Shown here in pieces: positions 4,140 to 42,935 of a stretch of DNA of 64,000 bases. The stretch comes from Betaproteobacteria bacterium. Its GTDB lineage: Bacteria > Pseudomonadota > Gammaproteobacteria > Burkholderiales > CAIKXV01. Each line of letters opens with the position of its first letter. Positions within the stretch are counted from its first letter, which is position 1. The notes below the pieces were generated by a model that was not told the origin of the DNA, made no database searches, and was given only the letters and a program-made list of their open reading frames with translations. The position numbers and the translations under genes are program-made. Location: contig JAJTHE010000040.1 of NCBI GenBank assembly GCA_021298815.1, forward strand, positions 3,999-67,998, given 5' to 3'.

Positions 4140-5105
4140 TCAGTCCACCGGCTTGATGCCGGCCTCTTTCGCCAGCCGCACCATGCGCACCGCCTGATCC
4201 TTCATCATCGCAGCCATCTGGGCGGGCGTACCGCCGGCGATGTCCAGCCCGGCGTCGGACAGGCGCGCCCGCGTGTCCTTCTCGGCCAGCACGCGGTTCA
4301 GCTCCGTGTTCAACCGGCCGACGATCGAGGCGGGCGTCGCGGGCGGCACCGCCATGCCCATCCAGCCCTCGAACTCGAAGCCGTCGAGCCCGGCTGCGGC
4401 GATCGTCGGCACCCCGGGCAGCGCGTCCGACGCGCGGCTGCCGGTCACGCCCAGCGCGCGCACCTTGCCGGCACGCACCTGCTGGATCGCCTCGGGGATG
4501 GTCTGGAACATCAGGTCGACCTGGCCGCCGAGCAGGTCGACCATCGCCGGCGCACCACCCTTGTACGGCACGTGGACCATCTTCACCTTCGCCAGGCTGC
4601 CGAACAGCTCGCCCGACATGTGCTGCGAGGATCCGTTGCCGCCGGAACCGTAGTTCAGCACGCCGGGACGGGTGCGTGCCAGTGCGATGAATTCCTTCAC
4701 CGACTTCGCAGGCACCGAGGGATTCACGATCAGCACATTGCCCTGGTAGACGACCATGCCGACCGGCGCGAGGTCCTTCAGCGGGTCGTACGGCATCCGG
4801 GTGTAGATGGCCAGGTTGCCGCCGAGCGCCCCCCCGCTGGACAGCAGGAACGCATAGCCATCCGGCGTGGCGCGTGCGACCACCTCACCGGCGATGTTGC
4901 CGCCGGCGCCCGGGCGGGTCTCGATCACCACCGGCTGCGCGAGCAGTTCCGAAAGCCGCGGCGCGACGATCCGACCCACGAGGTCGACGCTGCCGCCGGC
5001 GGCAAAGCCGATCACCATGCGCACCGGCTTGGTCGGCCAGAACTGGGCCAGCGCAGGGGCAGTCGATGTCGCGGCGACCAGTGCGACAGCCAGCATCCGG
5101 ATCAT
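4140..5105 (-). CDS. Bug/TctC-family periplasmic solute-binding protein
   Basis: 321-aa track ORF: MIRMLAVALVAATSTAPALAQFWPTKPVRMVIGFAAGGSVD. GAGGAG SD precedes ATG 5105. Confidence 0.9.
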   Translation of the reverse strand: MIRMLAVALVAATSTAPALAQFWPTKPVRMVIGFAAGGSVDLVGRIVAPRLSELLAQPVVIETRPGAGGNIAGEVVARATPDGYAFLLSSGGALGGNLAIYTRMPYDPLKDLAPVGMVVYQGNVLIVNPSVPAKSVKEFIALARTRPGVLNYGSGGNGSSQHMSGELFGSLAKVKMVHVPYKGGAPAMVDLLGGQVDLMFQTIPEAIQQVRAGKVRALGVTGSRASDALPGVPTIAAAGLDGFEFEGWMGMAVPPATPASIVGRLNTELNRVLAEKDTRARLSDAGLDIAGGTPAQMAAMMKDQAVRMVRLAKEAGIKPVD

Positions 5106-15098: not shown

Positions 15099-15217
15099 GG
15101 CGGGGCCGCCGCCGGGCCGGGCGGCGGGCGGCGTCGCTGCGCCGGCAGGAAGGTGGGCACGCTGGACACGCCGCCCGGGATTGCCTGCCCCGACAGCCGG
15201 GCGGAGGATCCGGAAAC

Positions 15218-15242
15218 TTCAGGAATTCCTGAAATTTCAGGA
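15218..15242. promoter_or_regulatory. Triple half-site operator candidate TTCAGGA-AT-TCCTGAA-AT-TTCAGGA
   Basis: Read directly. It comprises two overlapping perfect 16-bp palindromes (15218-15233 and 15227-15242) in an AT-rich patch 50 nt upstream of the GbsR-type regulator ATG. Confidence 0.55.
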
Positions 15243-15292
15243 TCGAGGTTGTCCTGCGCCTGTCCAGCGCCGGCTGCCCGACCCTTGCCGCC

Positions 15293-15871
15293 ATGGAAAC
15301 ACTGCCGCCGCTGGTCCGCGATTTCGTCCTGCACTTCGGGGAAATGGGCAGCCGCTGGGGGATCAACCGCACCGTCGGGCAGATCTACGCGCTGCTGTTC
15401 GTGTCGCCACGCCCGCTCAACGCCGACGAGATCGCCGAAGCCCTGGGCTTTTCGCGCTCCAACGTCAGCATGGGCCTCAAGGAACTGCAGTCGTGGCGGC
15501 TGACCCAGCCGCACCACCTGCCCGGCGACCGCCGTGAATACTTCGCCGCCCCGCAGGACGTGTGGACGATCTTCCGCACCCTGGCGGAGGAACGGAAGAA
15601 GCGCGAGGTCGAGCCGACGCTCACCATGCTGCGCGGCGCGCTGCTGCAGACGCCGTCGGGCGACGCCGAGCGCCATGCCCAGCAGCGGATGCGCGAGATG
15701 CATGATCTGGTGGAACTGATCACGTTGTGGTTCGACGACGTCGGCAAGCTGGATCCGGCTACGCTGGTGCCGCTGATGAAGATGGGTTCCACGGTCGCAA
15801 AGGTCCTCGAGATGAAGCAGAAGATCACCCAGCTGGCCGGCGGCAGGCAACGCACCGTCGCCGCCGAATGA
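15293..15871 (+). CDS. GbsR/MarR-family winged-helix transcriptional regulator
   Basis: 192-aa track ORF. FVLHFGEMGSRWGINRTVGQIYALLFVSPRPLNADEIAEALGFSRSNVSMGLKELQSW matches the GbsR-type N-terminal wHTH as I remember it. It ends 15 nt before cydA. Confidence 0.8.
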   Translation: METLPPLVRDFVLHFGEMGSRWGINRTVGQIYALLFVSPRPLNADEIAEALGFSRSNVSMGLKELQSWRLTQPHHLPGDRREYFAAPQDVWTIFRTLAEERKKREVEPTLTMLRGALLQTPSGDAERHAQQRMREMHDLVELITLWFDDVGKLDPATLVPLMKMGSTVAKVLEMKQKITQLAGGRQRTVAAE

Positions 15872-15886
15872 CCGGGAACCGCAGCC

Positions 15887-17272
15887 ATGCTCGAGTCCGC
15901 CATCACCGCCGCAGCCACCCCCGACGCGCTGCTGCTCGCACGCATACAGTTCGCGGCCAACATCACGTTCCACATCCTGTTCCCGACGATCACCATCGCG
16001 CTCGCCTGGGTGCTGCTGTTCTTCAAGCTGCGCTTCAACGCCACCGGCGATGCGAAGTGGATGGATGCGTACTATTTCTGGGTGAAGGTGTTCGCCCTGA
16101 CCTTCGCGTTGGGCGTAGTCAGCGGCATCACGATGAGCTTCCAGTTCGGCACCAACTGGCCGGGCTTCATGGAGACGGTCGGCAACATCGCCGGGCCCCT
16201 GCTCGCCTACGAGGTGCTCACCGCCTTCTTCCTCGAGGCGACCTTCCTCGGCATCATGCTGTTCGGCTACCAGCGTGTGGGCAACCGCATGCACACGGTC
16301 GCCACGGTGCTGGTGGCCTTCGGCACGTCCATGTCGGCGTTCTGGATCCTGGTGCTGAACTCGTGGATGCACACGCCGGCCGGCTTCGAGATGATCGACG
16401 GCAAGGCGCATGCCACGGACTGGCTGGCGATCGTGTTCAACCCGTCGCTGCCCTATCGGCTCACCCACATGATGATCGCCTCCGGGCTGACCGTCGCCTT
16501 CCTGGTCGCAGGCATCAGCGCATGGCGCCTGCTGCGCGGCGATCGCACGCCCGCGGTGATGGCGACGCTGAAGGTCGGGACCTGGCTGGGTGCGATCCTG
16601 ATCCCGCTGCAGATCGTGGTCGGTGACCTGCACGGGCTCAACACGCTCGAACACCAGCCGGCGAAGATCGCTGCGATCGAAGGCGTCTGGGAGACCGAAC
16701 GCGGTGCGCCACTGCTGCTGTTCGCGCTGCCCAACGCGCAGACCCGCAGCAACGACTACGCGCTGGGCGTGCCCAACCTCGCGTCGCTGATCCTCACCCA
16801 TGAATGGGACGGTGAGCTGAAGGGCCTGTCCGAGTTCGACGGCATGCATCCGCCGGTGGCCCCGGTGTTCTGGGCGTTCCGCATCATGGTCGGCACCGGC
16901 CTGCTGATGCTGGCGGTGTCGTGGTTCGCGGCCTGGCGGTTGCGGCGCGACGGCACCGTGCCGCCGGCACTGGCGCGGGTGATGGTGGTGATGACCTTCT
17001 CCGGCTGGGTGGCGACGGTGTCGGGCTGGTACGTGACCGAGATCGGACGCCAGCCCTGGCTGGTGCAGGGCGTACTGTCCACGGCCGATGCCGCCTCCGC
17101 CGTACCGGCGGCGGCCGTAGGAACCACCCTCGCCCTCTACCTGACCCTGTACGTGCTGCTGCTGGCCGCCTATGTCGGCGCCCTCTTCCACCTGGCGCGC
17201 AAGGGTGACCGCTCCAGTGCACCGGGCACGCCAGCGACCGGTGCCGCGGTCGCCGGCGGCCTGCGCGCCTGA
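15887..17272 (+). CDS. cydA: Cytochrome bd-type ubiquinol oxidase subunit I (short form, CIO-like)
   Basis: 461-aa track ORF with the typical CydA N-terminus LLLARIQFAANITFHILFPTITIALAWVLLFF and a polytopic membrane profile. The short length suggests a short Q-loop (cyanide-insensitive type). Confidence 0.9.
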   Translation: MLESAITAAATPDALLLARIQFAANITFHILFPTITIALAWVLLFFKLRFNATGDAKWMDAYYFWVKVFALTFALGVVSGITMSFQFGTNWPGFMETVGNIAGPLLAYEVLTAFFLEATFLGIMLFGYQRVGNRMHTVATVLVAFGTSMSAFWILVLNSWMHTPAGFEMIDGKAHATDWLAIVFNPSLPYRLTHMMIASGLTVAFLVAGISAWRLLRGDRTPAVMATLKVGTWLGAILIPLQIVVGDLHGLNTLEHQPAKIAAIEGVWETERGAPLLLFALPNAQTRSNDYALGVPNLASLILTHEWDGELKGLSEFDGMHPPVAPVFWAFRIMVGTGLLMLAVSWFAAWRLRRDGTVPPALARVMVVMTFSGWVATVSGWYVTEIGRQPWLVQGVLSTADAASAVPAAAVGTTLALYLTLYVLLLAAYVGALFHLARKGDRSSAPGTPATGAAVAGGLRA

Positions 17273-17273
17273 C

Positions 17274-18296
17274 ATGGACTACGCGATGCCGGACCTGTCC
17301 ACGCCGGCCGGATGGCTGCCCGTGGTGTTTCTCGCCCTGATGGGCATCTCGATGCTCGCCTACGTGGTGCTGGACGGCTACGACCTCGGCGTCGGCCTGC
17401 TGCTGCGCCACGCATGCGACGCGGACAAGGATCGGATGATCGCGTCCATCGGCCCCTTCTGGGATGCCAACGAGACGTGGCTGGTGCTCGGCGTCGGCCT
17501 GATGCTGACCGCCTTCCCGCTGGCCCATGGCGTGGTGCTGTCCGCACTCTACCTGCCGGTCGCCGCGATGCTGATCGGGCTCACCCTGCGCGGTGTCGCG
17601 TTCGAGTTCCGCGCCAAGGCCGATGCCGCTCACAAGCACCGGTGGAACCTCGCCTTCTTCGCCGGCTCGCTGCTCGCCACCTTCGCCCAGGGCACGATGC
17701 TGGGCTGGTACATCCTCGGCTTCGACCCCGGCACCGGCAGCCTGCTGTTCGCCATGTTCACCGGCTTCGCCCTGTGCGCCGGCTACGGGCTGCTCGGCGC
17801 GACCTGGCTGATCCTCAAGACCGAGGGCGAACTGCAGGTGCACGCGGTCCGCTGGGCCCGGTCCACGCTGTGGGCGACGGCCGCCGGCGTGGCCGCCATT
17901 TCGTTGGCCACGCCGCTGGTCAGCCCGCGCATCTTCGAGAAATGGTTCAGCCTGCCGAACGTGATCGGGCTTGCGCCGATCCCTCTGGCGACGACCGCGC
18001 TGTTCCTGGTGACCGCGACCTTCCTGCAGCGGCTGCCGGCCGCCGAGGATCGCTGGTGCTGGGTGCCCTTCGCCGCGACCGTCGGCGTGTTCGTGCTGGC
18101 CTTCCTCGGCCTCGCCTACAGCCTGTTCCCCTACCTGGTCGTCGACCGCATCACCATCTGGCAGGCGGCCAGCGCGCCGGAGTCGCTGATGATCATCCTG
18201 GTCGGGGCCGCGGTCGTGTTGCCTACCATCTTCGGCTACACCGTCTATGCCTACCGCGTGTTCCGCGGCAAGGCACGCGAGCTCACCTACCTCTGA
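17274..18296 (+). CDS. cydB: Cytochrome bd-type ubiquinol oxidase subunit II
   Basis: Track ORF 17172..18296 trimmed to ATG 17274, 1 nt after the cydA stop. MDYAMPDLSTPAGWLPVVFLALMGISMLAYVVLDGYDLGVG is the CydB hallmark. Confidence 0.9.
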   Translation: MDYAMPDLSTPAGWLPVVFLALMGISMLAYVVLDGYDLGVGLLLRHACDADKDRMIASIGPFWDANETWLVLGVGLMLTAFPLAHGVVLSALYLPVAAMLIGLTLRGVAFEFRAKADAAHKHRWNLAFFAGSLLATFAQGTMLGWYILGFDPGTGSLLFAMFTGFALCAGYGLLGATWLILKTEGELQVHAVRWARSTLWATAAGVAAISLATPLVSPRIFEKWFSLPNVIGLAPIPLATTALFLVTATFLQRLPAAEDRWCWVPFAATVGVFVLAFLGLAYSLFPYLVVDRITIWQAASAPESLMIILVGAAVVLPTIFGYTVYAYRVFRGKARELTYL

Positions 18297-18314: not shown

Positions 18315-19193
18315 TCACAGCCGGTCGACCGGCAGCTTCAGGTAGCGCACCCCGTTGTCTTCCGGCGGCGGCAGGTCCCCTGCCCGGATGTTCACCTGTA
18401 TCGCAGGCAGGATCAGCACGGGCATCGCGAGCGTCGCGTCGCGCCGCTCGCGCATCTCGACGAACGCCGATGCGGCGATGCCGTCGCGCACATGGATGTT
18501 GCCCGTGCGCTGCGCCGCCACGGTGGTGACCGGGCACGGCGCCCGTCCGTCCGGCGGATAGTCGTGGCACATGAACAGCCTGGTCTGCGCGGGCAGTTCG
18601 AGCAGCGCACGGATCGACCGGTACAGCGTGGCCGCATCGCCGCCCGGGAAGTCACAGCGCGCCGTGCCCACGTCGGGCGGGAACAGCGTATCGCCGAGGA
18701 ACACGGCGTCGCCGACACGGTAGGCACAGTCGGCCGGGGTATGGCCGGGCACGTGCATCACGACCGCCTCGAGCGCGCCGATGCGGAAGGCCTCGCCCGG
18801 CTCGAACAGGTGGTCGAACTGCGAGCCATCGGTGGCGAACTCCGGGCCGAGGTTGAACACCTGGGCGAACACCGACTGCACGGCGCGGATGGATGCCCCG
18901 ATGCCGATGCGCCCGCCCAGCCGTTCGCGCAGCCAGCGCGCGGCACTGAGGTGGTCGGCGTGCGCGTGGGTCTCGAGGATCCACTCGACGCGCAGCGACA
19001 GGCGCTCGACCGCGTCGACCACTCGCTGCGCGGACACGCGCGAGGTACGGCCGGACTTCGGATCGAAGTCCAGGACCGGGTCGACGATCGCGCAGCCGCT
19101 GCCGGCGCCTGCATGCACGACATGGGTGAAGGTGCAGGTGACCGGATCGAACAGCGACTCCACCTGCGGGACCGTCGCGACGGCTGCATCCAT
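18315..19193 (-). CDS. MBL-fold metallohydrolase, ETHE1/persulfide-dioxygenase-like
   Basis: Track ORF 18315..19265 trimmed to ATG 19193 (GGAAGGAGG SD). It has the HAHADH metal motif, and GDTLFPPDVGTARCDFPGGDAATLYRSIRALLELPAQTRLFMCHDY parallels the ETHE1-type C-terminal motif. Confidence 0.8.
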   Translation of the reverse strand: MDAAVATVPQVESLFDPVTCTFTHVVHAGAGSGCAIVDPVLDFDPKSGRTSRVSAQRVVDAVERLSLRVEWILETHAHADHLSAARWLRERLGGRIGIGASIRAVQSVFAQVFNLGPEFATDGSQFDHLFEPGEAFRIGALEAVVMHVPGHTPADCAYRVGDAVFLGDTLFPPDVGTARCDFPGGDAATLYRSIRALLELPAQTRLFMCHDYPPDGRAPCPVTTVAAQRTGNIHVRDGIAASAFVEMRERRDATLAMPVLILPAIQVNIRAGDLPPPEDNGVRYLKLPVDRL

Positions 19194-19207
19194 TTGCGCC
19201 TCCTTCC

Positions 19208-19411
19208 TCAGCGCCCGGCCTTCATCGGGCAGGTGTTGATGCCGAGCAGCGTATAGGCCGGGCAAAAGCCGAACAATGCCGTGCCGAGCGGCACCAGGCC
19301 GATGAGCCCGAACCAGCGCGCGCTGCCTTCGAGCAGGAACACCAGGGAAAGGATGCCCAGCCCGGCGACGATGCGCAAGGTCTTGTCGATCGATCCGACG
19401 TTCTTTTCCAT
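19208..19411 (-). CDS. DUF2892 (YgaP-like) small membrane protein
   Basis: Track ORF 19208..19543 trimmed to ATG 19411 (GGAGAG SD). MEKNVGSIDKTLRIVAGLGILSLVFLLEG..LIGLVPLGTALFGFCPAYTLLGINTC is the typical two-TM DUF2892 pattern. It sits 14 nt upstream of the MBL gene. Confidence 0.8.
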   Translation of the reverse strand: MEKNVGSIDKTLRIVAGLGILSLVFLLEGSARWFGLIGLVPLGTALFGFCPAYTLLGINTCPMKAGR

Positions 19412-19468
19412 CTTGTCTCTCCTTCGGTGGGTGAAGCGGATGGACGGATCCTGCGCGCTCCCGGTCGC

Positions 19469-19496
19469 GGCGTCGGTGACCGCGGTCACCGACGCC
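19469..19496. promoter_or_regulatory. 28-bp perfect palindrome GGCGTCGGTGACCGCGGTCACCGACGCC with GTGA-N6-TCAC core
   Basis: Read directly and checked base by base. It lies between the Crp/Fnr-type gene stop (19571) and the DUF2892 start (19411). The core has CRP/FNR-family half-site spacing. Confidence 0.5.
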
Positions 19497-19570
19497 TGCG
19501 GCCCGCGCCGGCGCGCCAGGCTCCGCTGCGCACGGGCCCGCATGGAGCGCGCCCGGGCGCGCGCTCGCGC

Positions 19571-20251
19571 TCAGCCTGCCGCGGAAGCGACTGCGCGCAG
19601 CCGCACGGGATCGAGGATCTCTATGCGCTCGCGAGACAGCCGCACCAGGCCGTCATCGGCGAAGTGATGCAGCAGGCGGGTGACGATCTCGCGCACGCTG
19701 CCCAGCTCGTCCGCGATCGACTGGTGGGTGACCTGCAGCACGCGGCCGCGGCCAAGCAGCAGCGCGGCCAGCCGCTGGTCGAGGCGCTGGAAGGCGACGG
19801 CTTCGACCAGCGCCATCAGTTCGCCGAGCCGGGCCGAGAACAGCGAGAACACATAGGTGCGGAAGGATTCGTCGCCCGCGACGAGCCTGCGGAACACCGG
19901 CTCGGGCACCGCGACCAGCCGCGCCTCCCGCTCCACCACGCCGCGCGCCGAATACGCGGTTCGCCCGACCAGGCAGCCGGAGGTCAGCACGCAGGCTTCA
20001 CCGGCATGCACCCTGTACAGGAGGATCTCGCGTCCGGTGGACGATACCTTCGACACCCGGATCGCGCCCTCCAGCAGGAACGGCATCGCCTCGCAGGCGG
20101 CATGGTCATCGAACATCAGCGTGCCGGCCGGTACCTCGAGCAGGCGCGCCTGGTCGACCAGCGCATCGAAGCTTTCCGCCGGCAGCCCGGCCAGCACCGG
20201 ATACGCTGCGCGCAGTTCTTCCGCGACGGCGACGCCGATCGGCCCGCTCAT
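19571..20251 (-). CDS. Crp/Fnr-family transcriptional regulator (no FNR-type N-terminal Cys cluster)
   Basis: 226-aa track ORF with a cNMP-binding-like beta-barrel (FLLEGAIRVSKVSSTGREILLYRV) and a C-terminal HTH (VTHQSIADELGSVREIVTRLLHHF). The start overlaps the stop of the ATPase gene (ATGA 20248-20251). Confidence 0.85.
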   Translation of the reverse strand: MSGPIGVAVAEELRAAYPVLAGLPAESFDALVDQARLLEVPAGTLMFDDHAACEAMPFLLEGAIRVSKVSSTGREILLYRVHAGEACVLTSGCLVGRTAYSARGVVEREARLVAVPEPVFRRLVAGDESFRTYVFSLFSARLGELMALVEAVAFQRLDQRLAALLLGRGRVLQVTHQSIADELGSVREIVTRLLHHFADDGLVRLSRERIEILDPVRLRAVASAAG

Positions 20252-23046
20252 GCGGATCGGGACGTCGACAGCACGGCGGCAGGCGCCGCAGGCCCGGCAC
20301 CCGCAGCCGCGGCACCGGTCGGCATCGTGGTCGATGTCCGCGGCGGATCATCCGACAGCAGCCGCATCGCGTTGCCGACCACCAGCAGCGAACTCGCGGA
20401 CATGCCGATCGCGGCCACCCAGGGCGTGACCAGCCCGGCGACCGCCAGCGGCACCGCGACCAGGTTGTATGCCGTCGCCCACAGCAGGTTGCCGCGGATC
20501 ACCCGCAGCGCGCGCCGCGACATCCGGATCGCACCGAGCAGCGACCGCATGTCGGCCTGCTCGCCACGGGCGAGCCACACCATGTCCGCCGCTGCCTGCG
20601 CTACCTGGGTGCCGGACGCCGGCGCGATCGACACCTGTGCCCCGGCGAGCACCGGGGCATCGTTCACGCCGTCGCCGAACATCGCGACGACCCCGCCGCC
20701 CGCCTGCAGGTCGCGCACGAACGCCAGCTTGGCCTCGGGCGACATCCCGCCCTGCACCGGCAACCGTCGTCCCGGGGCAGGCGTGCCCGGCTCGATGCCC
20801 AGTGCCGCGGCGACCGCCGCGACCGTGCCCGGATGGTCGCCCGACAGCAGCATCACCGTCGCTCCATCCGCCTGCAGGCCGGCGACCAGTTCGCGCGCCC
20901 CGGGACGCAGCTGGTCGGCCAGCATGAACGTGGCGAGCACGCCCTGCGCGTCGCCCAGCAGCACGCAGGTCTCGCCGCGCTGCATCGCGACGGCCGCCGC
21001 TGCACCTGCCTCGGCTGCGTCCATGCCCGCCGCGTCCGCCGCGGGCCGCACCGCCGGCGAGGCAGCATCCTGCACCGTGGGCGCGGCCGACAGCGCCGCG
21101 ACGAACGCCGGCGTGCCGAGCCTGAGCAGGATGCCGTCGACCCGGCCCTCGACGCCGCCGCCGGCGACATGCCGCAAGCCCTCCACGACCGGTGGCAGGG
21201 CGTCCGCGCCGGCGGCCGCCAGCGCGTCCCGCACATGGGCCGCCAGCGCCAGGCCCAGCGGATGCTCGGAACGCTGCTCCAGCGCGGCGACCGCGCGCAG
21301 CAGGTCGACCACCGCCGGACTGCCCTGCGCGCGCGCCGCGCCGGATCGCGGCTGGAAGTCGGTCACGCGCAGGCTGCCGGTGGTGAGCGTGCCGGTCTTG
21401 TCGAACACGAACACCGAGGCCCGCGCCAGCGTCTCGATCGCATGGCCACGGGTGGGCAGCAGCCCGAAGCGCGCCAGCGCGCTCGCGGCCGCGGCGAGCG
21501 CCGCCGGCGTGGCGAGCGACAGCGCGCAGGGACAGGTGATCACCAGCACCGCGACCGTCACCCACAGCGCATGCGCCGGGTCATGCCATCCCCACCACAG
21601 GGCCGTGGCCGCTGCGACCAGCAGCAGCCCGAGCACGAACTGCCCGGCCACCCGGTCGGCCAGCGCGGCCAGCGGCGGCTTCTCGGACGCCGCGCGATCG
21701 AGCAGCCGCACGATCCCCGCAAGCACGGTCTGCTCGCCGATGCGCTCGACCCGGATGACGAGCGGCGACACCAGGTTCACCGCGCCGCCGGTGACCGGGG
21801 CCCCGGCGGCGCGCAGCACCGGGCGGCTCTCGCCGGTCAGCAGCGCTTCGTCGACCTCGCCCTCGCCGTCCAGCACGCGGCCATCGGCCGGGATGCGTTC
21901 GCCCGGGCGCACCAGCAGCACGTCGCCGGCCTTCAGCCGTACCACCGGCACGGTCTCGACGGGCTGTTGCAACGGCCAGGCCGGCAGCAGGCTGGCGGTG
22001 GCCGGGATGAGCCGTGCCAGTTCGTCGGTCGCGCGCGCGGCGCGCGCGCGCACCTGCGACTCGAGATAACGCGCACCGAGCAGCAGGAACAAGAACATCG
22101 TGACCGAATCGAAATAGACATCGCCGACGCCGGTGAGGGTGGCGAACACGCTCGCCCCGAACGCTCCCCCGATGCCGATCGCCACCGGCACGTCCATGCC
22201 GACGCGGCGCGCACACAGGTCGCGCCAGGCCGCGCTGAAGATGGGTGCCGCCGAGTACACGATCACCGGCAACGTAAGGATGAGCCCCGCCCAGCTCATC
22301 AGCCGGTCGACATCGGCGGTCATGTCGCCGTCGGCGATCCAGACCGGGAACGCGTACATCATCACCTGCATCATGCCCAGGCCGGCGATCGCCAGCCGCG
22401 CCAGCGCGCGCTTGCGCTCGACCCGGTGCAGGTCGTCCATGCGCGTCGCGTCGTACGGGCTCGCGCGGTAGCCGATGCTCGCGATCGCCGACAGGATCGA
22501 AGACAGAGACCCGCGTGCGGCGTCCCAGCGCACCCGCGCACGGCGGGTCGCATAGTTGACCTCAACCCCGGTGACCCCGGGCACGCGCGCCAAGGTGCGT
22601 TCGGTCAGCCAGACGCAGGCGGCGCAGGTGATGCCTTCGATCAGCAGCGCCGCTTCGCGCTCGTCGTGCGCCTGGCCGTCGCGCGCTACCCGCGCACCCA
22701 CGGGCCCGGGCACCGTCCGGACGAACGAGGCCTGCACCGCCGGGTCGTCGTACAGCAGCAGTTGCGCCAGCGACTGCGGCATGGCCTCGGCGGCCGACGC
22801 CGGCATGGACTCGCGGTGTTCGTAGTAGCGCTCGAGGCCGCCATCGACGATGGCCATCGCCACCGCGCGGCAGCCGGTGCAGCACATCTCGCGCGCATGG
22901 CCACCGATGGTGACGGTGAGCCCGGACACCCCGCCCAGCGGCAGCCCGCAGTGGAAGCAGAGCCCGTCCGCGGGTGCCACGGTGGACGGGCCTGCGCGGC
23001 CGTCATTGCTGCGGGATGCCCCGGGCGTCGATTCCGCTTCCTTCAT
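20248..23046 (-). CDS. ccoI: Heavy-metal (copper) translocating P1B-type ATPase, FixI/CcoI-like
   Basis: Track ORF 20248..23100 trimmed to ATG 23046 (GGGAGG SD). It has the FixI-type N-terminus CFHCGLP..CCTGC, an HMA domain GITCAACV, and the CPC, DKTGTLT, SEHPLG and GDGVNDAP motifs. Confidence 0.9.
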   Translation of the reverse strand: MKEAESTPGASRSNDGRAGPSTVAPADGLCFHCGLPLGGVSGLTVTIGGHAREMCCTGCRAVAMAIVDGGLERYYEHRESMPASAAEAMPQSLAQLLLYDDPAVQASFVRTVPGPVGARVARDGQAHDEREAALLIEGITCAACVWLTERTLARVPGVTGVEVNYATRRARVRWDAARGSLSSILSAIASIGYRASPYDATRMDDLHRVERKRALARLAIAGLGMMQVMMYAFPVWIADGDMTADVDRLMSWAGLILTLPVIVYSAAPIFSAAWRDLCARRVGMDVPVAIGIGGAFGASVFATLTGVGDVYFDSVTMFLFLLLGARYLESQVRARAARATDELARLIPATASLLPAWPLQQPVETVPVVRLKAGDVLLVRPGERIPADGRVLDGEGEVDEALLTGESRPVLRAAGAPVTGGAVNLVSPLVIRVERIGEQTVLAGIVRLLDRAASEKPPLAALADRVAGQFVLGLLLVAAATALWWGWHDPAHALWVTVAVLVITCPCALSLATPAALAAAASALARFGLLPTRGHAIETLARASVFVFDKTGTLTTGSLRVTDFQPRSGAARAQGSPAVVDLLRAVAALEQRSEHPLGLALAAHVRDALAAAGADALPPVVEGLRHVAGGGVEGRVDGILLRLGTPAFVAALSAAPTVQDAASPAVRPAADAAGMDAAEAGAAAAVAMQRGETCVLLGDAQGVLATFMLADQLRPGARELVAGLQADGATVMLLSGDHPGTVAAVAAALGIEPGTPAPGRRLPVQGGMSPEAKLAFVRDLQAGGGVVAMFGDGVNDAPVLAGAQVSIAPASGTQVAQAAADMVWLARGEQADMRSLLGAIRMSRRALRVIRGNLLWATAYNLVAVPLAVAGLVTPWVAAIGMSASSLLVVGNAMRLLSDDPPRTSTTMPTGAAAAGAGPAAPAAVLSTSRSA

Positions 23047-23074
23047 CCGCGTTGGCCTCCCGCATCGTCGACGC

Positions 23075-23674
23075 CTAGAACTTGTAGCCGACGCCCACAC
23101 CCAGCACCACCGGATCGATCTTCAGGCTGGACACGAAAGCCCCGGCCGCCGTCTTCACGTCGGTGTCGATCCAGATCTTCTTGAGGTCGACGTTCAGGTA
23201 CCAGTTCCCGGACAGCCGGTAGTCGAAGCCGGCCTGGATCGCGCCTCCGGTGCTGGTCTTGTCGACGGTGAGTGCACCGCCGGCGAGGTCGACATCGTAG
23301 AATCGGGTGTAGTTCAGTCCCACGCCGACGTATGGCTTGAAAGCCTGCGACGGCATGAAATGGTACTGCAGCAGCAGCGTCGGCGGCAGGTGCTTGACCG
23401 TGCCCACGCTCGCGCCGGCGTTGGTCACCGTATGCCGCTGGGTCGCGAGGATCAGTTCGACCGCGATGTTCGGCGTGAAGAACCAGCTCAGGTCGAGCTC
23501 CGGCGTGACTTCGTTGGACACGCCCAGGTTGAGCGGCGACGAACTCTCGTTCGGCATGATGCTCAGCAACCGCCCACGCACCATCAACTGGGCGTTGGCA
23601 TCCGGTGCCGGCAGCATAGCCGCGGTTCCGGTGGCCATCATCGCAGCGGCGGCAAGCGATCGGGAGATCTTCAT
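23075..23674 (-). CDS. ompW: OmpW-family outer-membrane beta-barrel protein
   Basis: Track ORF 23075..23740 trimmed to ATG 23674 (AAGGAAAG SD). A signal peptide MKISRSLAAAAMMATGTAAMLPAPDANA is followed by alternating beta-strand sequence ending in GVGVGYKF. Confidence 0.85.
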   Translation of the reverse strand: MKISRSLAAAAMMATGTAAMLPAPDANAQLMVRGRLLSIMPNESSSPLNLGVSNEVTPELDLSWFFTPNIAVELILATQRHTVTNAGASVGTVKHLPPTLLLQYHFMPSQAFKPYVGVGLNYTRFYDVDLAGGALTVDKTSTGGAIQAGFDYRLSGNWYLNVDLKKIWIDTDVKTAAGAFVSSLKIDPVVLGVGVGYKF

Positions 23675-23751
23675 TTTTCTTTCCTTCTTCCTGATGGGAA
23701 CGGTTTCGGTGAGCAGCGACACGATGCTAAGTCCGACCACGCCGCCGCGGG

Positions 23752-31973: not shown

Positions 31974-33185
31974 ATGGCACTTCCCCTCGAAGGAGTGAAG
32001 GTGGTCGACCTGACCAACGTGCTGGCAGGGCCTTTCTGCACGATGACCATGTCCGACCTGGGTGCGGAAGTGCTCAAGGTCGAGAACTTCCCGGAGGGCG
32101 ACCTTTCGCGCCGGCTGTCGCCGAAGATCAACGACGAGAGCTACTGCTTCGCGATGGTCAACCGGAACAAGCGCAGCATCGGCCTCGACCTGAAGAGCCC
32201 GCGCGGCAAGGAGGTGTTCATGAAACTCGCCGCCGGCGCGGACGTGATCCTCGAGAACATGCGCCCGGACGCGAAGTTCCACATGGGCGTCGACTACGAG
32301 TCGGTGAAGAAGGTCAACGAGAAGATCATCTACGCCTCGATCTCCGGCTTCGGCCAGACCGGGCCCTATGCGAAGAAGGGCGGCTACGACATCGTCGCCC
32401 AGGGCATGACCGGCATCATGCGCATGACCGGCGACCAGGGCGGCCGCCCAGCCAAGGTCGGCATCGCGATGAACGACGTGGCCGGCGGCATCACCGCCCT
32501 GTACGCGATCCTCGCTGCCTACATCCACCGCCTGCGCACCGGCGAGGGCCAGTACCTCGAGACCTCGCTGGTCGATGCCGGCCTCGCCTGGATGATGTGG
32601 GAGTCGGCGGCGTTCTTCGGCGCCGGCGAGGTCGCGATGGCCAATGGCACGCGCCATCGACGGTCGGCGCCCTATCAGGCCTTCCGCACCGCAGATGGCT
32701 ACGTGACGGTCGGCGCCAACAGCGAGAAGATGTGGGCGAGCTTCTGCAACGACGTGCTCGGGCGCCCGGAGATGCTGCAGGACGAACGCTTCGAGGGCCT
32801 GCAGAACCGCCTCGCGAACGTCGACGCGCTGCAGGACGAGATCGAGAAGGTGCTGACCACGCAGCCCACGGCGCACTGGGTGCCGCTGCTGGACAAGGCG
32901 GCTGTGCCCGGGGGACCGGTCTACACCTTCGACGAGACCGTGGAAGACCCGCACATCAAGGCGCGCGAGATGTTCTTCGACGTCGAGCATCCGATCATCG
33001 GCAAGATGAAGAACATCGGCTACCCGGTGAAGTTCTCGCGCACGCCGCAGCAGTTCAGGTCCGCCGCGCCCTGGCTCGGGCAACACACCACCGACGTGCT
33101 GGGCGAGCTCGGCTACACGGCGGCGCAGATCGAATCGCTGTTCGGCGATTCGGTGGTGTTCGACAAGTACCGCAAGCCCGCCTGA
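31974..33185 (+). CDS. Family III CoA-transferase (CaiB/BaiF)
   Basis: 403-aa track ORF. LEGVKVVDLTNVLAGPFCTMTMSDLGAEVLKVE and the internal GYD(I/V)V..G motif are typical of the family. Confidence 0.9.
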   Translation: MALPLEGVKVVDLTNVLAGPFCTMTMSDLGAEVLKVENFPEGDLSRRLSPKINDESYCFAMVNRNKRSIGLDLKSPRGKEVFMKLAAGADVILENMRPDAKFHMGVDYESVKKVNEKIIYASISGFGQTGPYAKKGGYDIVAQGMTGIMRMTGDQGGRPAKVGIAMNDVAGGITALYAILAAYIHRLRTGEGQYLETSLVDAGLAWMMWESAAFFGAGEVAMANGTRHRRSAPYQAFRTADGYVTVGANSEKMWASFCNDVLGRPEMLQDERFEGLQNRLANVDALQDEIEKVLTTQPTAHWVPLLDKAAVPGGPVYTFDETVEDPHIKAREMFFDVEHPIIGKMKNIGYPVKFSRTPQQFRSAAPWLGQHTTDVLGELGYTAAQIESLFGDSVVFDKYRKPA

Positions 33186-42153: not shown

Positions 42154-42894
42154 ATGACCGAAACCACCCCTCCCAGCCTGACCGGCAAGGTGCCGCGCGA
42201 TCGTATCGCCACCCTGTCGCTGCCCCGCCTGCCCGGATCGCTGGTCGATGCGTACCGCGGACTGGTCGACCTCACCGGGACGGTCTCTGACGCGATGGAC
42301 GCGCTGGGGCTGGTCGGCGCGGTGCCTGCCCAGGTCCTGCAGCCGATGCTGGCGGGCAGGCGCGTGGTCGGCCAGGCGGTGACCGTGCGCAACGTCGAGA
42401 AGAAACAGCAGGTTTTCCGCGCCGCGTCCGAGAAGGTCAACCTGATGGGCGAGGCCGAGGCGCACAACCTCGCCCGGCCAGGCGACATCGTGGTGATCGA
42501 GGGGCTGATGGGCTGCTCGAACCTGGGGGGACAGTCCGCCACCATCGGCCACCGCCAGGGCGAGGCCGCGGTGATCGTCGACGGTTCCATCCGCGACCCG
42601 GACGCCTCGCGCGAACTCGGCTTCCCGGTGTGGTGCCGCGGCGTGACGCCGGTGACCGGCAAGTGGCGCCTCGAGACGGTCGAGATCAACGGCCCGGTCG
42701 CGATCTGCGGCGTCCAGGTGCGTGCCGGCGACCTGGTCTGCGCCGACGACGCGGGCGTCTGCTTCGTGCCCTTCGACCACGCCGAAGCCGTGCTGGCCGA
42801 GGCGATGAAGATCGACGCCGGCGACACACTGCGCAAAGAAGAGATCGTCCGCGGCGTCGACGTGAAGACCCTGGTCACGAAGAAGTACAAATGA
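42154..42894 (+). CDS. RraA-family protein (RNase E regulator / HMG-CHA aldolase-oxaloacetate decarboxylase fold)
   Basis: Track ORF 41848..42894 trimmed to ATG 42154 (GGGAG SD). GDIVVIEG...NLGGQSATIGHRQGEAAVIVDGSIRD is the RraA-like core. Confidence 0.8.
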   Translation: MTETTPPSLTGKVPRDRIATLSLPRLPGSLVDAYRGLVDLTGTVSDAMDALGLVGAVPAQVLQPMLAGRRVVGQAVTVRNVEKKQQVFRAASEKVNLMGEAEAHNLARPGDIVVIEGLMGCSNLGGQSATIGHRQGEAAVIVDGSIRDPDASRELGFPVWCRGVTPVTGKWRLETVEINGPVAICGVQVRAGDLVCADDAGVCFVPFDHAEAVLAEAMKIDAGDTLRKEEIVRGVDVKTLVTKKYK

Positions 42895-42909: not shown

Positions 42910-42935
42910 GGGGTCTGACCCCGGGGTCAGACCCC
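42910..42935. terminator. 26-bp perfect palindrome GGGGTCTGACCCCGGGGTCAGACCCC between convergent genes
   Basis: Read and checked directly. It would fold as an 11-bp stem with a CCGG loop, and it sits in the 49-nt gap between convergent stops (42894 and 42944). There is no U-tract. Confidence 0.45.

Follow-up and report, generated by a model that had tools for sequence, protein, structure and literature searches.

A CRP-like inverted repeat upstream of a DUF2892 gene as the probable operator of an adjacent Crp/Fnr-type regulator in Betaproteobacteria

The window, that is, the whole 64-kb stretch of betaproteobacterial DNA analyzed here (G+C content of 70%), carries a gene for a Crp/Fnr-family regulator followed, after a spacer of 159 nt, by a gene for a small YgaP-like transmembrane protein with a DUF2892 domain. 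All of the relevant genes at this locus are located on the minus strand, and Table 1 lists them together with the other features described below. Upstream of the regulator lie an OmpW gene and a gene for a copper P1B-ATPase. The stop codon of the ATPase gene overlaps the ATG of the regulator in the form of ATGA (20248-20251), and the same 4-nt overlap is present in four related loci (L081, L082, L087, and L088), so that the ATPase and the regulator are probably cotranscribed, which implies translational coupling of the copper pump and the regulator. On the other side, a gene for a metallo-beta-lactamase-fold protein begins 14 nt past the DUF2892 gene, and therefore the two probably form one operon. 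When the product of this second gene was compared with the NCBIfam profile bifunc_ST_SDO, which describes Blh, the E value was 1.8e-111, with an alignment covering profile positions 138 to 423 only and a score below the cutoff. The Blh-like gene converges on cydAB (15887-18296, cytochrome bd), an arrangement that is kept in L081, L082, and L088, and together they make up a neighborhood with a sulfide stress and respiration theme.

Table 1. Coordinates of genes and sequence features at the locus, in window positions
Feature	Position	Strand	Remarks
OmpW gene	23075-23740	-	
CcoI/FixI-type copper P1B-ATPase	20248-23100	-	PF12156, HMA, E1-E2_ATPase
Crp/Fnr-family regulator, 226 aa	19571-20251	-	Cys53/Cys87/Cys93 invariant; recognition helix GSVREIVTRLL
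28-bp perfect palindrome GGCGTCGGTGACCGCGGTCACCGACGCC	19469-19496	.	Longest perfect palindrome in the window
Putative operator core, 20 bp, TCGGTGAC-N4-GTCACCGA	19473-19492	.	Conserved in close relatives
GAC directly after the right half-site	19472-19474	-	Offsets 9-11 from the center; G in 63/65, A in 55/65, C in 58/65 promoters
Predicted -10 hexamer CAGGAT	19448-19453	-	Offsets 30-35 from the palindrome center
Predicted transcription start, A	19441	-	Inferred from geometry; 30-nt leader
Ribosome-binding site AAGGAGA of the DUF2892 gene	19418-19424	-	AGGAG conserved there in orthologous loci
DUF2892/YgaP-like transmembrane protein gene, 67 aa	19208-19411	-	PF11127, E = 5.5e-23; conserved putative target gene
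Metallo-beta-lactamase-fold protein, similar to the Blh dioxygenase domain (persulfide dioxygenase type)	18315-19193	-	Pfam Lactamase_B

The spacer between the regulator and DUF2892 genes contains a sequence equal to its own reverse complement, made up of two 14-nt arms with zero gap. The original prediction had described this self-complementarity over 28 positions and had placed the near edge of the palindrome 58 nt from the DUF2892 ATG (19411) and its far edge 75 nt from the regulator stop codon (19571); sequence, coordinates, and both distances were found to be exact. An arm of 14 was not reached in any of 300 dinucleotide-preserving shuffles of the window, where the maximum was an arm of 13, seen once. 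In Escherichia coli, the CRP site is TGTGA-N6-TCACA, the FNR site is TTGAT-N4-ATCAA, and class II sites are centered at -41.5. The two half-sites of the palindrome, GTGA-N6-TCAC (that is, GTGAC-N4-GTCAC), have the same spacing as these CRP and FNR sites. When the window was searched for GTGAC-N4-GTCAC, a search that the original prediction had proposed for the genome, the exact sequence occurred once, and the matches with one mismatch (5 seen versus 2.9 expected) were not above chance level.

The regulator had thousands of relatives in the search, and 24 of them were aligned. A genome scan with one genome per species provided at least 566 tblastn-confirmed matches to the regulator, and 80 loci were kept among the matches listed; the subfamily is present in several hundred betaproteobacterial species genomes. 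A DUF2892 gene came after the regulator on the same strand in 61 of these 80 species-level loci, and the distance was at most 400 nt in 54. The other neighbors of the regulator differed widely among loci, which, together with this pairing, indicates that the conserved unit consists of the regulator and DUF2892. Along similar lines, the first open reading frames (ORFs) after DUF2892, when clustered across loci, were mostly genes without a Pfam match or unrelated genes, and both the Blh-like gene downstream of DUF2892 and the upstream ATPase gene were specific to the clade of the window. Judging from these neighborhoods, DUF2892 would usually be a single-gene target, with the dioxygenase confined to the clade of the window.

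The regulator-DUF2892 spacers contained an inverted repeat, usually CTGTAACC..GGTTACAGAC, and the usual form of the site in relatives was TGTAAC-N4-GTTACA. Upstream of DUF2892, the strict pattern GT[AG]A[CT]-N4-[AG]T[CT]AC was found in 65 of 70 nonredundant loci, and three of the other five had a near match. From the center of the site to the DUF2892 ATG, the distance was 67.5 to 72.5 nt in 51 of the 65 loci, the value for the window (71.5 nt) being the mode, while the distance to the regulator stop codon ranged from -74.5 nt (inside the regulator ORF) to about +2980 nt. In the loci with a separated regulator and DUF2892 gene (L002, L005, L029, L047, and L058), the site remained with DUF2892. 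The site, its geometry, and its position, also relative to the promoter, are conserved across many genomes and species, and the site travels with DUF2892. The neighborhood of regulator and motif was found in dozens of species of Burkholderiales, Rhodocyclaceae, Gallionellaceae, and others. In 19 of the 80 loci, there was no DUF2892 downstream of the regulator on its strand, and 17 of these 19 also had no motif beside the regulator. Two loci without DUF2892 had the site after the regulator, in one case (L039, 4699-4712) before the gene of a 154-aa protein ending in CVACH and in the other (L048, 1341-1354) before an RND efflux adaptor gene. Away from the regulator and DUF2892 genes, there were seven strict matches in the first 80 loci (ca. 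0.6 Mb).

A position weight matrix (PWM) was built from 44 distinct orthologous sites, with the site of the window left out. It gave the window site a score of 21.9 bits, compared with 9.4 bits for the runner-up in the 64 kb, which is located within long ORFs, and a maximum of 15.0 in 30 shuffles. The matrix detected no credible second site in the window, the match at 32301-32320 being inside long ORFs, and the search within the window for other sites that could serve autoregulation, the ATPase/OmpW promoter, or cydAB gave no credible candidate. Together, the family-wide motif, its fixed position, and the PWM score indicate that the palindrome is the form taken in the window by a promoter element shared across the family.

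What is conserved is shorter than the 28-bp symmetry. Among close relatives, only the 20 innermost base pairs (TCGGTGAC-N4-GTCACCGA) and the C that comes next were conserved; variation affected the CGCG in the center and the four outermost pairs (GGCG/CGCC). In other Betaproteobacteria, the orthologous counterpart of this 20-bp core is the site (C)TGT(A/G)AC-N4-GT(T/C)ACA(G). The core was unchanged in L081, L082, and L084/L001 and differed at one position in L087 and L088; accordingly, the form TCGGTGAC-N4-GTCACCGAC was retained by the close relatives (regulators 75 to 89% identical), with a single substitution in the latter two. The full 28-bp symmetry is specific to the window, and the extra symmetry beyond the 20 bp is probably incidental. 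The original prediction had taken the length of perfect symmetry as a sign of function, a view that these comparisons do not support, given that the length is peculiar to the window. The argument from length is therefore without weight, and the reading of the site as a probable operator stands without it. When contigs from metagenomes were scanned for TCGGTGAC-N4-GTCACCGAC, 117 of the 119 matches had no DUF2892 at the expected distance and were mostly in unrelated GC-rich DNA, so that this pattern alone is not diagnostic. The same scan contributed five further loci of the family (L141, L176, L182, L191, and L194). One of these, the metagenomic locus L194, whose regulator is 48% identical, has an identical 26-nt palindrome, GCGTCGGTGACCGCGGTCACCGACGC, upstream of DUF2892, in reverse-complement orientation (core at ca. 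4351-4370) and 81.5 nt before the DUF2892 ATG. The recurrence of GCGTCGGTGACCGCGGTCACCGACGC could be due either to chance in G+C-rich DNA or to a preference at the flanking positions.

The region between the site and the DUF2892 gene also had a conserved layout. The GAC that directly follows the right half-site is in register with the GAC of TTGACA, if this -35 hexamer is set 17 nt before the predicted -10, and may be a -35 remnant. In 55 of the 65 orthologous promoters, the best -10-like hexamer (TCAAAT, TGTAAT, TCCAAT, etc.) started at offset 30 or 31 from the center of the site, and a TGn extension preceded it in 34 of the 65. Moreover, C-A was common at offsets 41 and 42, which fits a start site. 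If the hexamer is taken as -12 to -7, the center of the site falls at -41.5, where CRP and FNR are located at class II promoters, and a class II placement, at approximately -41.5, is predicted from this geometry. The predicted hexamer in the window is a weak -10, and a consensus scan detected no canonical sigma-70 promoter in the region, as expected for an activator-dependent promoter.

The regulator itself has HTH_Crp_2 and cNMP-binding domains (PF13545, PF00027, and PF00325). Its recognition helix, GSVREIV(S/T)RLL, showed no variation in the alignment of 24 sequences and very little in the other loci, and the helix segment VREIVTR is matched in alignments by RETVSR in a solved CRP (4ev0) and by R-V-T-V-T-R in NtcA. 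In CRP, residues 180, 181, and 185 are the DNA base contacts (PMC1274295). By homology, the R-E-x-x-x-R helix of this putative cognate Crp/Fnr protein would fit the GTGA half-site. Cysteines 53, 87, and 93 were invariant in all of the 98 regulators examined. By comparison with CRP, Cys87 and Cys93 appear to follow a Gly-Glu that we take as the start of the phosphate-binding cassette. The nearest solved relative of the family profile was PDB 3dv8 (E = 6e-41), in which the three cysteines and an R-E-x-x-T-R helix are kept; it is an uncharacterized Crp/Fnr regulator from structural genomics, and its record gives neither a function nor a ligand nor a DNA site.

Several known regulators were considered as possible identities of this protein and rejected. 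CRP was discarded on the grounds of its NCBIfam score (PRK11753, 30.1 bits versus a cutoff of 266), and NtcA, although it was the best NCBIfam match, reached 49.7 against a cutoff of 245. The original prediction had pointed out that the regulator lacks the N-terminal Cys cluster of FNR, which agrees with our analysis: the first cysteine is residue 53, and the helix (R-E-I-V-T-R) and the site (GTGAC-N4-GTCAC) also argue against FNR. HcpR2 was rejected because Glu is retained in the helices of 55 of the 55 loci listed and the target is DUF2892. Literature searches for links between Crp/Fnr regulators and either DUF2892 or persulfide dioxygenase gave no description of this regulator family. By its sequence, the regulator belongs to an uncharacterized Crp/Fnr subfamily with three invariant cysteines. 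A covariation between helix (T/S191 and H/K/R195) and operator (GGTGAC versus TGTRAC), clean in the first set of loci, was broken by L176 and L194, which have Lys and Ser, respectively, in the helix and GGTGAC-type sites in both cases; given these exceptions and the phylogenetic confounding, we treat it as weak.

Considering all of these data, we regard it as probable that the palindrome is the operator of the adjacent regulator, located in the promoter of the operon of DUF2892 and the Blh-like dioxygenase in a class II arrangement. The original prediction had preferred an operator to a terminator, and that choice is favored by the synteny, the motif, its fixed position, the PWM score, the offset of the -10, and the helix. 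A dimer of the regulator would recognize the two GTGAC half-sites through its CRP-like Arg-Glu-x-x-x-Arg helix, with the center of the site ca. 41.5 nt upstream of the predicted start (near 19441) and overlapping the -35 region. From there, as a class II regulator of the Crp/Fnr type, it would activate by touching RNA polymerase, and the signal would be sensed via the three invariant cysteines of the sensor domain. Binding by the adjacent regulator is suggested by the synteny and the logic of the helix, and activation rather than repression is suggested by the placement of the site. Points that count against this explanation are the weak -10 of the window, the imperfect covariation of helix and operator, the poor specificity of the pattern in the metagenome scan, the long perfect symmetry of the window, which the explanation does not account for (hairpin of -26.1 kcal/mol versus an orthologous median of -11.7, and its recurrence in L194), and the fact that a site over the -35 could equally repress.

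The last of these points leads to the main variant, in which the operator and the regulator are the same but the dimer blocks RNA polymerase at the -35, or read-through from the regulator gene, until the signal releases it. The site does overlap the predicted -35, and the partial -35 (GAC) with an often extended -10 could allow transcription independent of an activator. Furthermore, the known regulators of operons of the YgaP/Blh type (BigR, YgaV, and SqrR) are repressors released by persulfide, and the strong induction of the Azospira DUF2892 gene by sulfide (see below) fits derepression as well as activation. However, the center was at -41.5 to within ca. 1 nt in 55 of the 65 promoters, which is a hallmark of class II Crp/Fnr activation, and most characterized Crp/Fnr proteins activate from this position. 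The -35 also lacks the TTG, the part that matters most, the -10 of the window is poor, and the consensus scan provided no sigma-70-like promoter. Repression is thus rather unlikely, although it keeps appreciable weight, and an activator site of class II is the most likely reading of the promoter layout.

It is far less probable that the palindrome acts chiefly as an RNA hairpin, be it an intrinsic terminator, an attenuator, or a 3'-end stabilizer of the ATPase-regulator transcript. It is indeed on the transcribed strand, 75 nt past the regulator stop, and could form a G+C-rich stem of 12 bp with a 4-nt loop (-26.1 kcal/mol); the whole intergenic RNA folded better than shuffles (z = -2.67), and hairpins that lack a clear U-run are often used by bacteria with a high G+C content. 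Against this, a U-run was absent both here, where the minus strand after the palindrome reads GCGACCGGGAGCGCGCAGGATCC, as the original prediction had also noted, and at all 64 orthologous sites. Hairpins at the orthologous sites were weak: their energies ranged from -3.1 to -17.4 kcal/mol around a median of -11.7, and none had arms longer than 8 bp. What is conserved is the sequence and not the pairing alone, including the asymmetric GAC; the half-sites vary independently, and in RNA, a mixed site of the type TGTAAC...GTCACA would leave an A opposite a C. The position is fixed with respect to the ATG that follows and not to the stop codon that precedes it, and Sulfuritalea loci have the left half of the site inside the coding end of the regulator. 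Thus, an intrinsic (Rho-independent) terminator was rejected, the stem being present but without a U-run and with a position that is not tied to the upstream stop. No Rfam family was detected in 19100-19800, and the consensus scan detected no terminator at the site. In the genome of the window alone, the palindrome may conceivably have a hairpin role in addition. Just as improbable is a genuine transcription factor site read by another protein, for example, a Crp/Fnr paralogue encoded elsewhere: CRP-like half-sites are recognized by many members of the family, and the 19 loci without DUF2892 after the regulator, with 17 of them also without the adjacent motif, indicate that regulator and motif are separable, but the motif adjoins the regulator gene in dozens of species, L039 and L048 keep it directly downstream of the regulator although another gene follows, and the residues of the regulator helix fit the half-site.

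In order to put the predicted regulator-operator pair into perspective, we compared it with known systems. It resembles class II CRP and FNR promoters in its inverted 5-bp half-sites, which are spaced alike from center to center, in the predicted center at -41.5 over a poor -35, and in a regulator that combines a cNMP-like sensor with HTH_Crp_2 and has the CRP-type R-E-x-x-x-R helix. It differs from FNR in that, instead of the N-terminal cluster, there are three cysteines, one N-terminal in the sensor domain and two just after the Gly-Glu, and from both CRP and FNR in its half-site (GGTGAC in the window and TGT(A/G)AC in relatives). Also unlike CRP and FNR, the family seems to be tied to a single conserved local target rather than to a demonstrated global regulon. 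According to Rodionov et al. (2005, PMC1274295), sites of HcpR2, GTAAC-N4-GTTAC, are found upstream of hcp genes, and Pro occupies, in HcpR2 proteins, the position that corresponds to Glu181 of CRP. The HcpR2 core is almost identical to the majority form TGTAAC-N4-GTTACA, both regulators belong to Crp/Fnr, and both were predicted by comparative genomics; however, Glu is kept in the family studied here, the target is DUF2892 rather than hcp, and the taxa are others. NtcA of cyanobacteria binds the site GTA-N8-TAC and is among the closest solved structures, and the TGTA-N8-TACA of the relatives formally fits its consensus. Nevertheless, the helix (R-E-I-V-S/T-R versus R-V-T-V-T-R in NtcA) is different, the site of the window has GTG and not GTA, and the context is not related to nitrogen.

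A different kind of comparison is provided by BigR, YgaV, and SqrR, ArsR-family persulfide-sensing repressors that control Blh and YgaP-type genes. They share with the system described here the YgaP-like and Blh-type targets, the adjoining regulator gene, and cysteine chemistry as the likely sensing mechanism. However, their ArsR winged-helix fold and their DNA site are unrelated to those of the Crp/Fnr regulator, so that the resemblance is in role only.

Sulfide or persulfide, Cu(I)/copper, and Fe-S or redox are the candidate signals for the regulator. Pointing to sulfide, a Blh-type sulfur dioxygenase is encoded in the operon of the window, next to an operon for a sulfide-insensitive cytochrome bd, and genes of the YgaP and Blh types are elsewhere under the persulfide-sensing repressors of the ArsR family named above. 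In Azospira suillum PS, the DUF2892 gene Dsui_0042 tops the table of genes differentially expressed on H2S addition, with a 9.45-fold change, and it lies beside Dsui_0043, annotated as a "cAMP-binding protein" (PMC5358917) and, by this annotation, a candidate orthologue of the regulator. The pointers to copper include the overlap of the regulator with the CcoI-type copper ATPase gene in the window and the presence of the site before the RND efflux adaptor in one locus (L048). An Fe-S cluster on the three cysteines is possible. Together, the Azospira induction, the Blh-type dioxygenase, and the neighbors CopA/CopZ or CcoI point to sulfide or copper stress. The first two of these neighbors come from Gallionellaceae and related genomes (L014, L027, L031, and L080), in which regulator, putative operator, DUF2892, sometimes a Tll0287-like gene, a CopA-type copper ATPase gene, and a CopZ chaperone gene follow on one strand, so that the cassette is linked to copper export a second time and independently.

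As a DNA element, the site would be ordinary, a conventional transcription factor operator. However, it anchors a testable triplet of regulator, operator, and target for a Crp/Fnr subfamily without a described function, which is widespread (the at least 566 matches mentioned above) and paired almost everywhere with a DUF2892 (YgaP-like) gene. The sulfide induction in Azospira is the sole experimental hint to the role of this pair, and the three invariant cysteines are the obvious candidate for the sensing mechanism. Tentatively, we propose that this unstudied subfamily could sense a thiol-reactive signal by a Cys triad in the region that corresponds to the nucleotide pocket of CRP and switch on the YgaP-like protein via TGT(A/G)AC-N4-GT(T/C)ACA, a reading that we consider possible though short of probable. 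The signal would most plausibly be sulfide or persulfide and, alternatively, Cu(I). If this were true, the regulator would be a nonhomologous equivalent of BigR, SqrR, and YgaV, the persulfide sensors of the ArsR type.

Three other palindromic sequences were observed in the window. Directly past the regulator stop, at 19547-19562, there is a 16-nt perfect palindrome, GCGCGCCCGGGCGCGC, which is better placed than the 28-mer for any hairpin ending the regulator transcript. The second longest perfect palindrome in the window (26 nt, GGGGTCTGACCCCGGGGTCAGACCCC, 42910-42935) is located between convergent ORFs ending at 42894 (plus strand) and 42944 (minus strand) and resembles a bidirectional terminator hairpin. 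Finally, GATCCGGAAACTTCAGGAATTCCTGAAATTTCAGGATC (15207-15244) holds two overlapping 16-nt perfect palindromes (15218-15233 and 15227-15242) ca. 50 nt before the gene of a MarR/GbsR-like regulator (15293-15871), a gene that itself precedes cydAB, and is probably the operator of that regulator.
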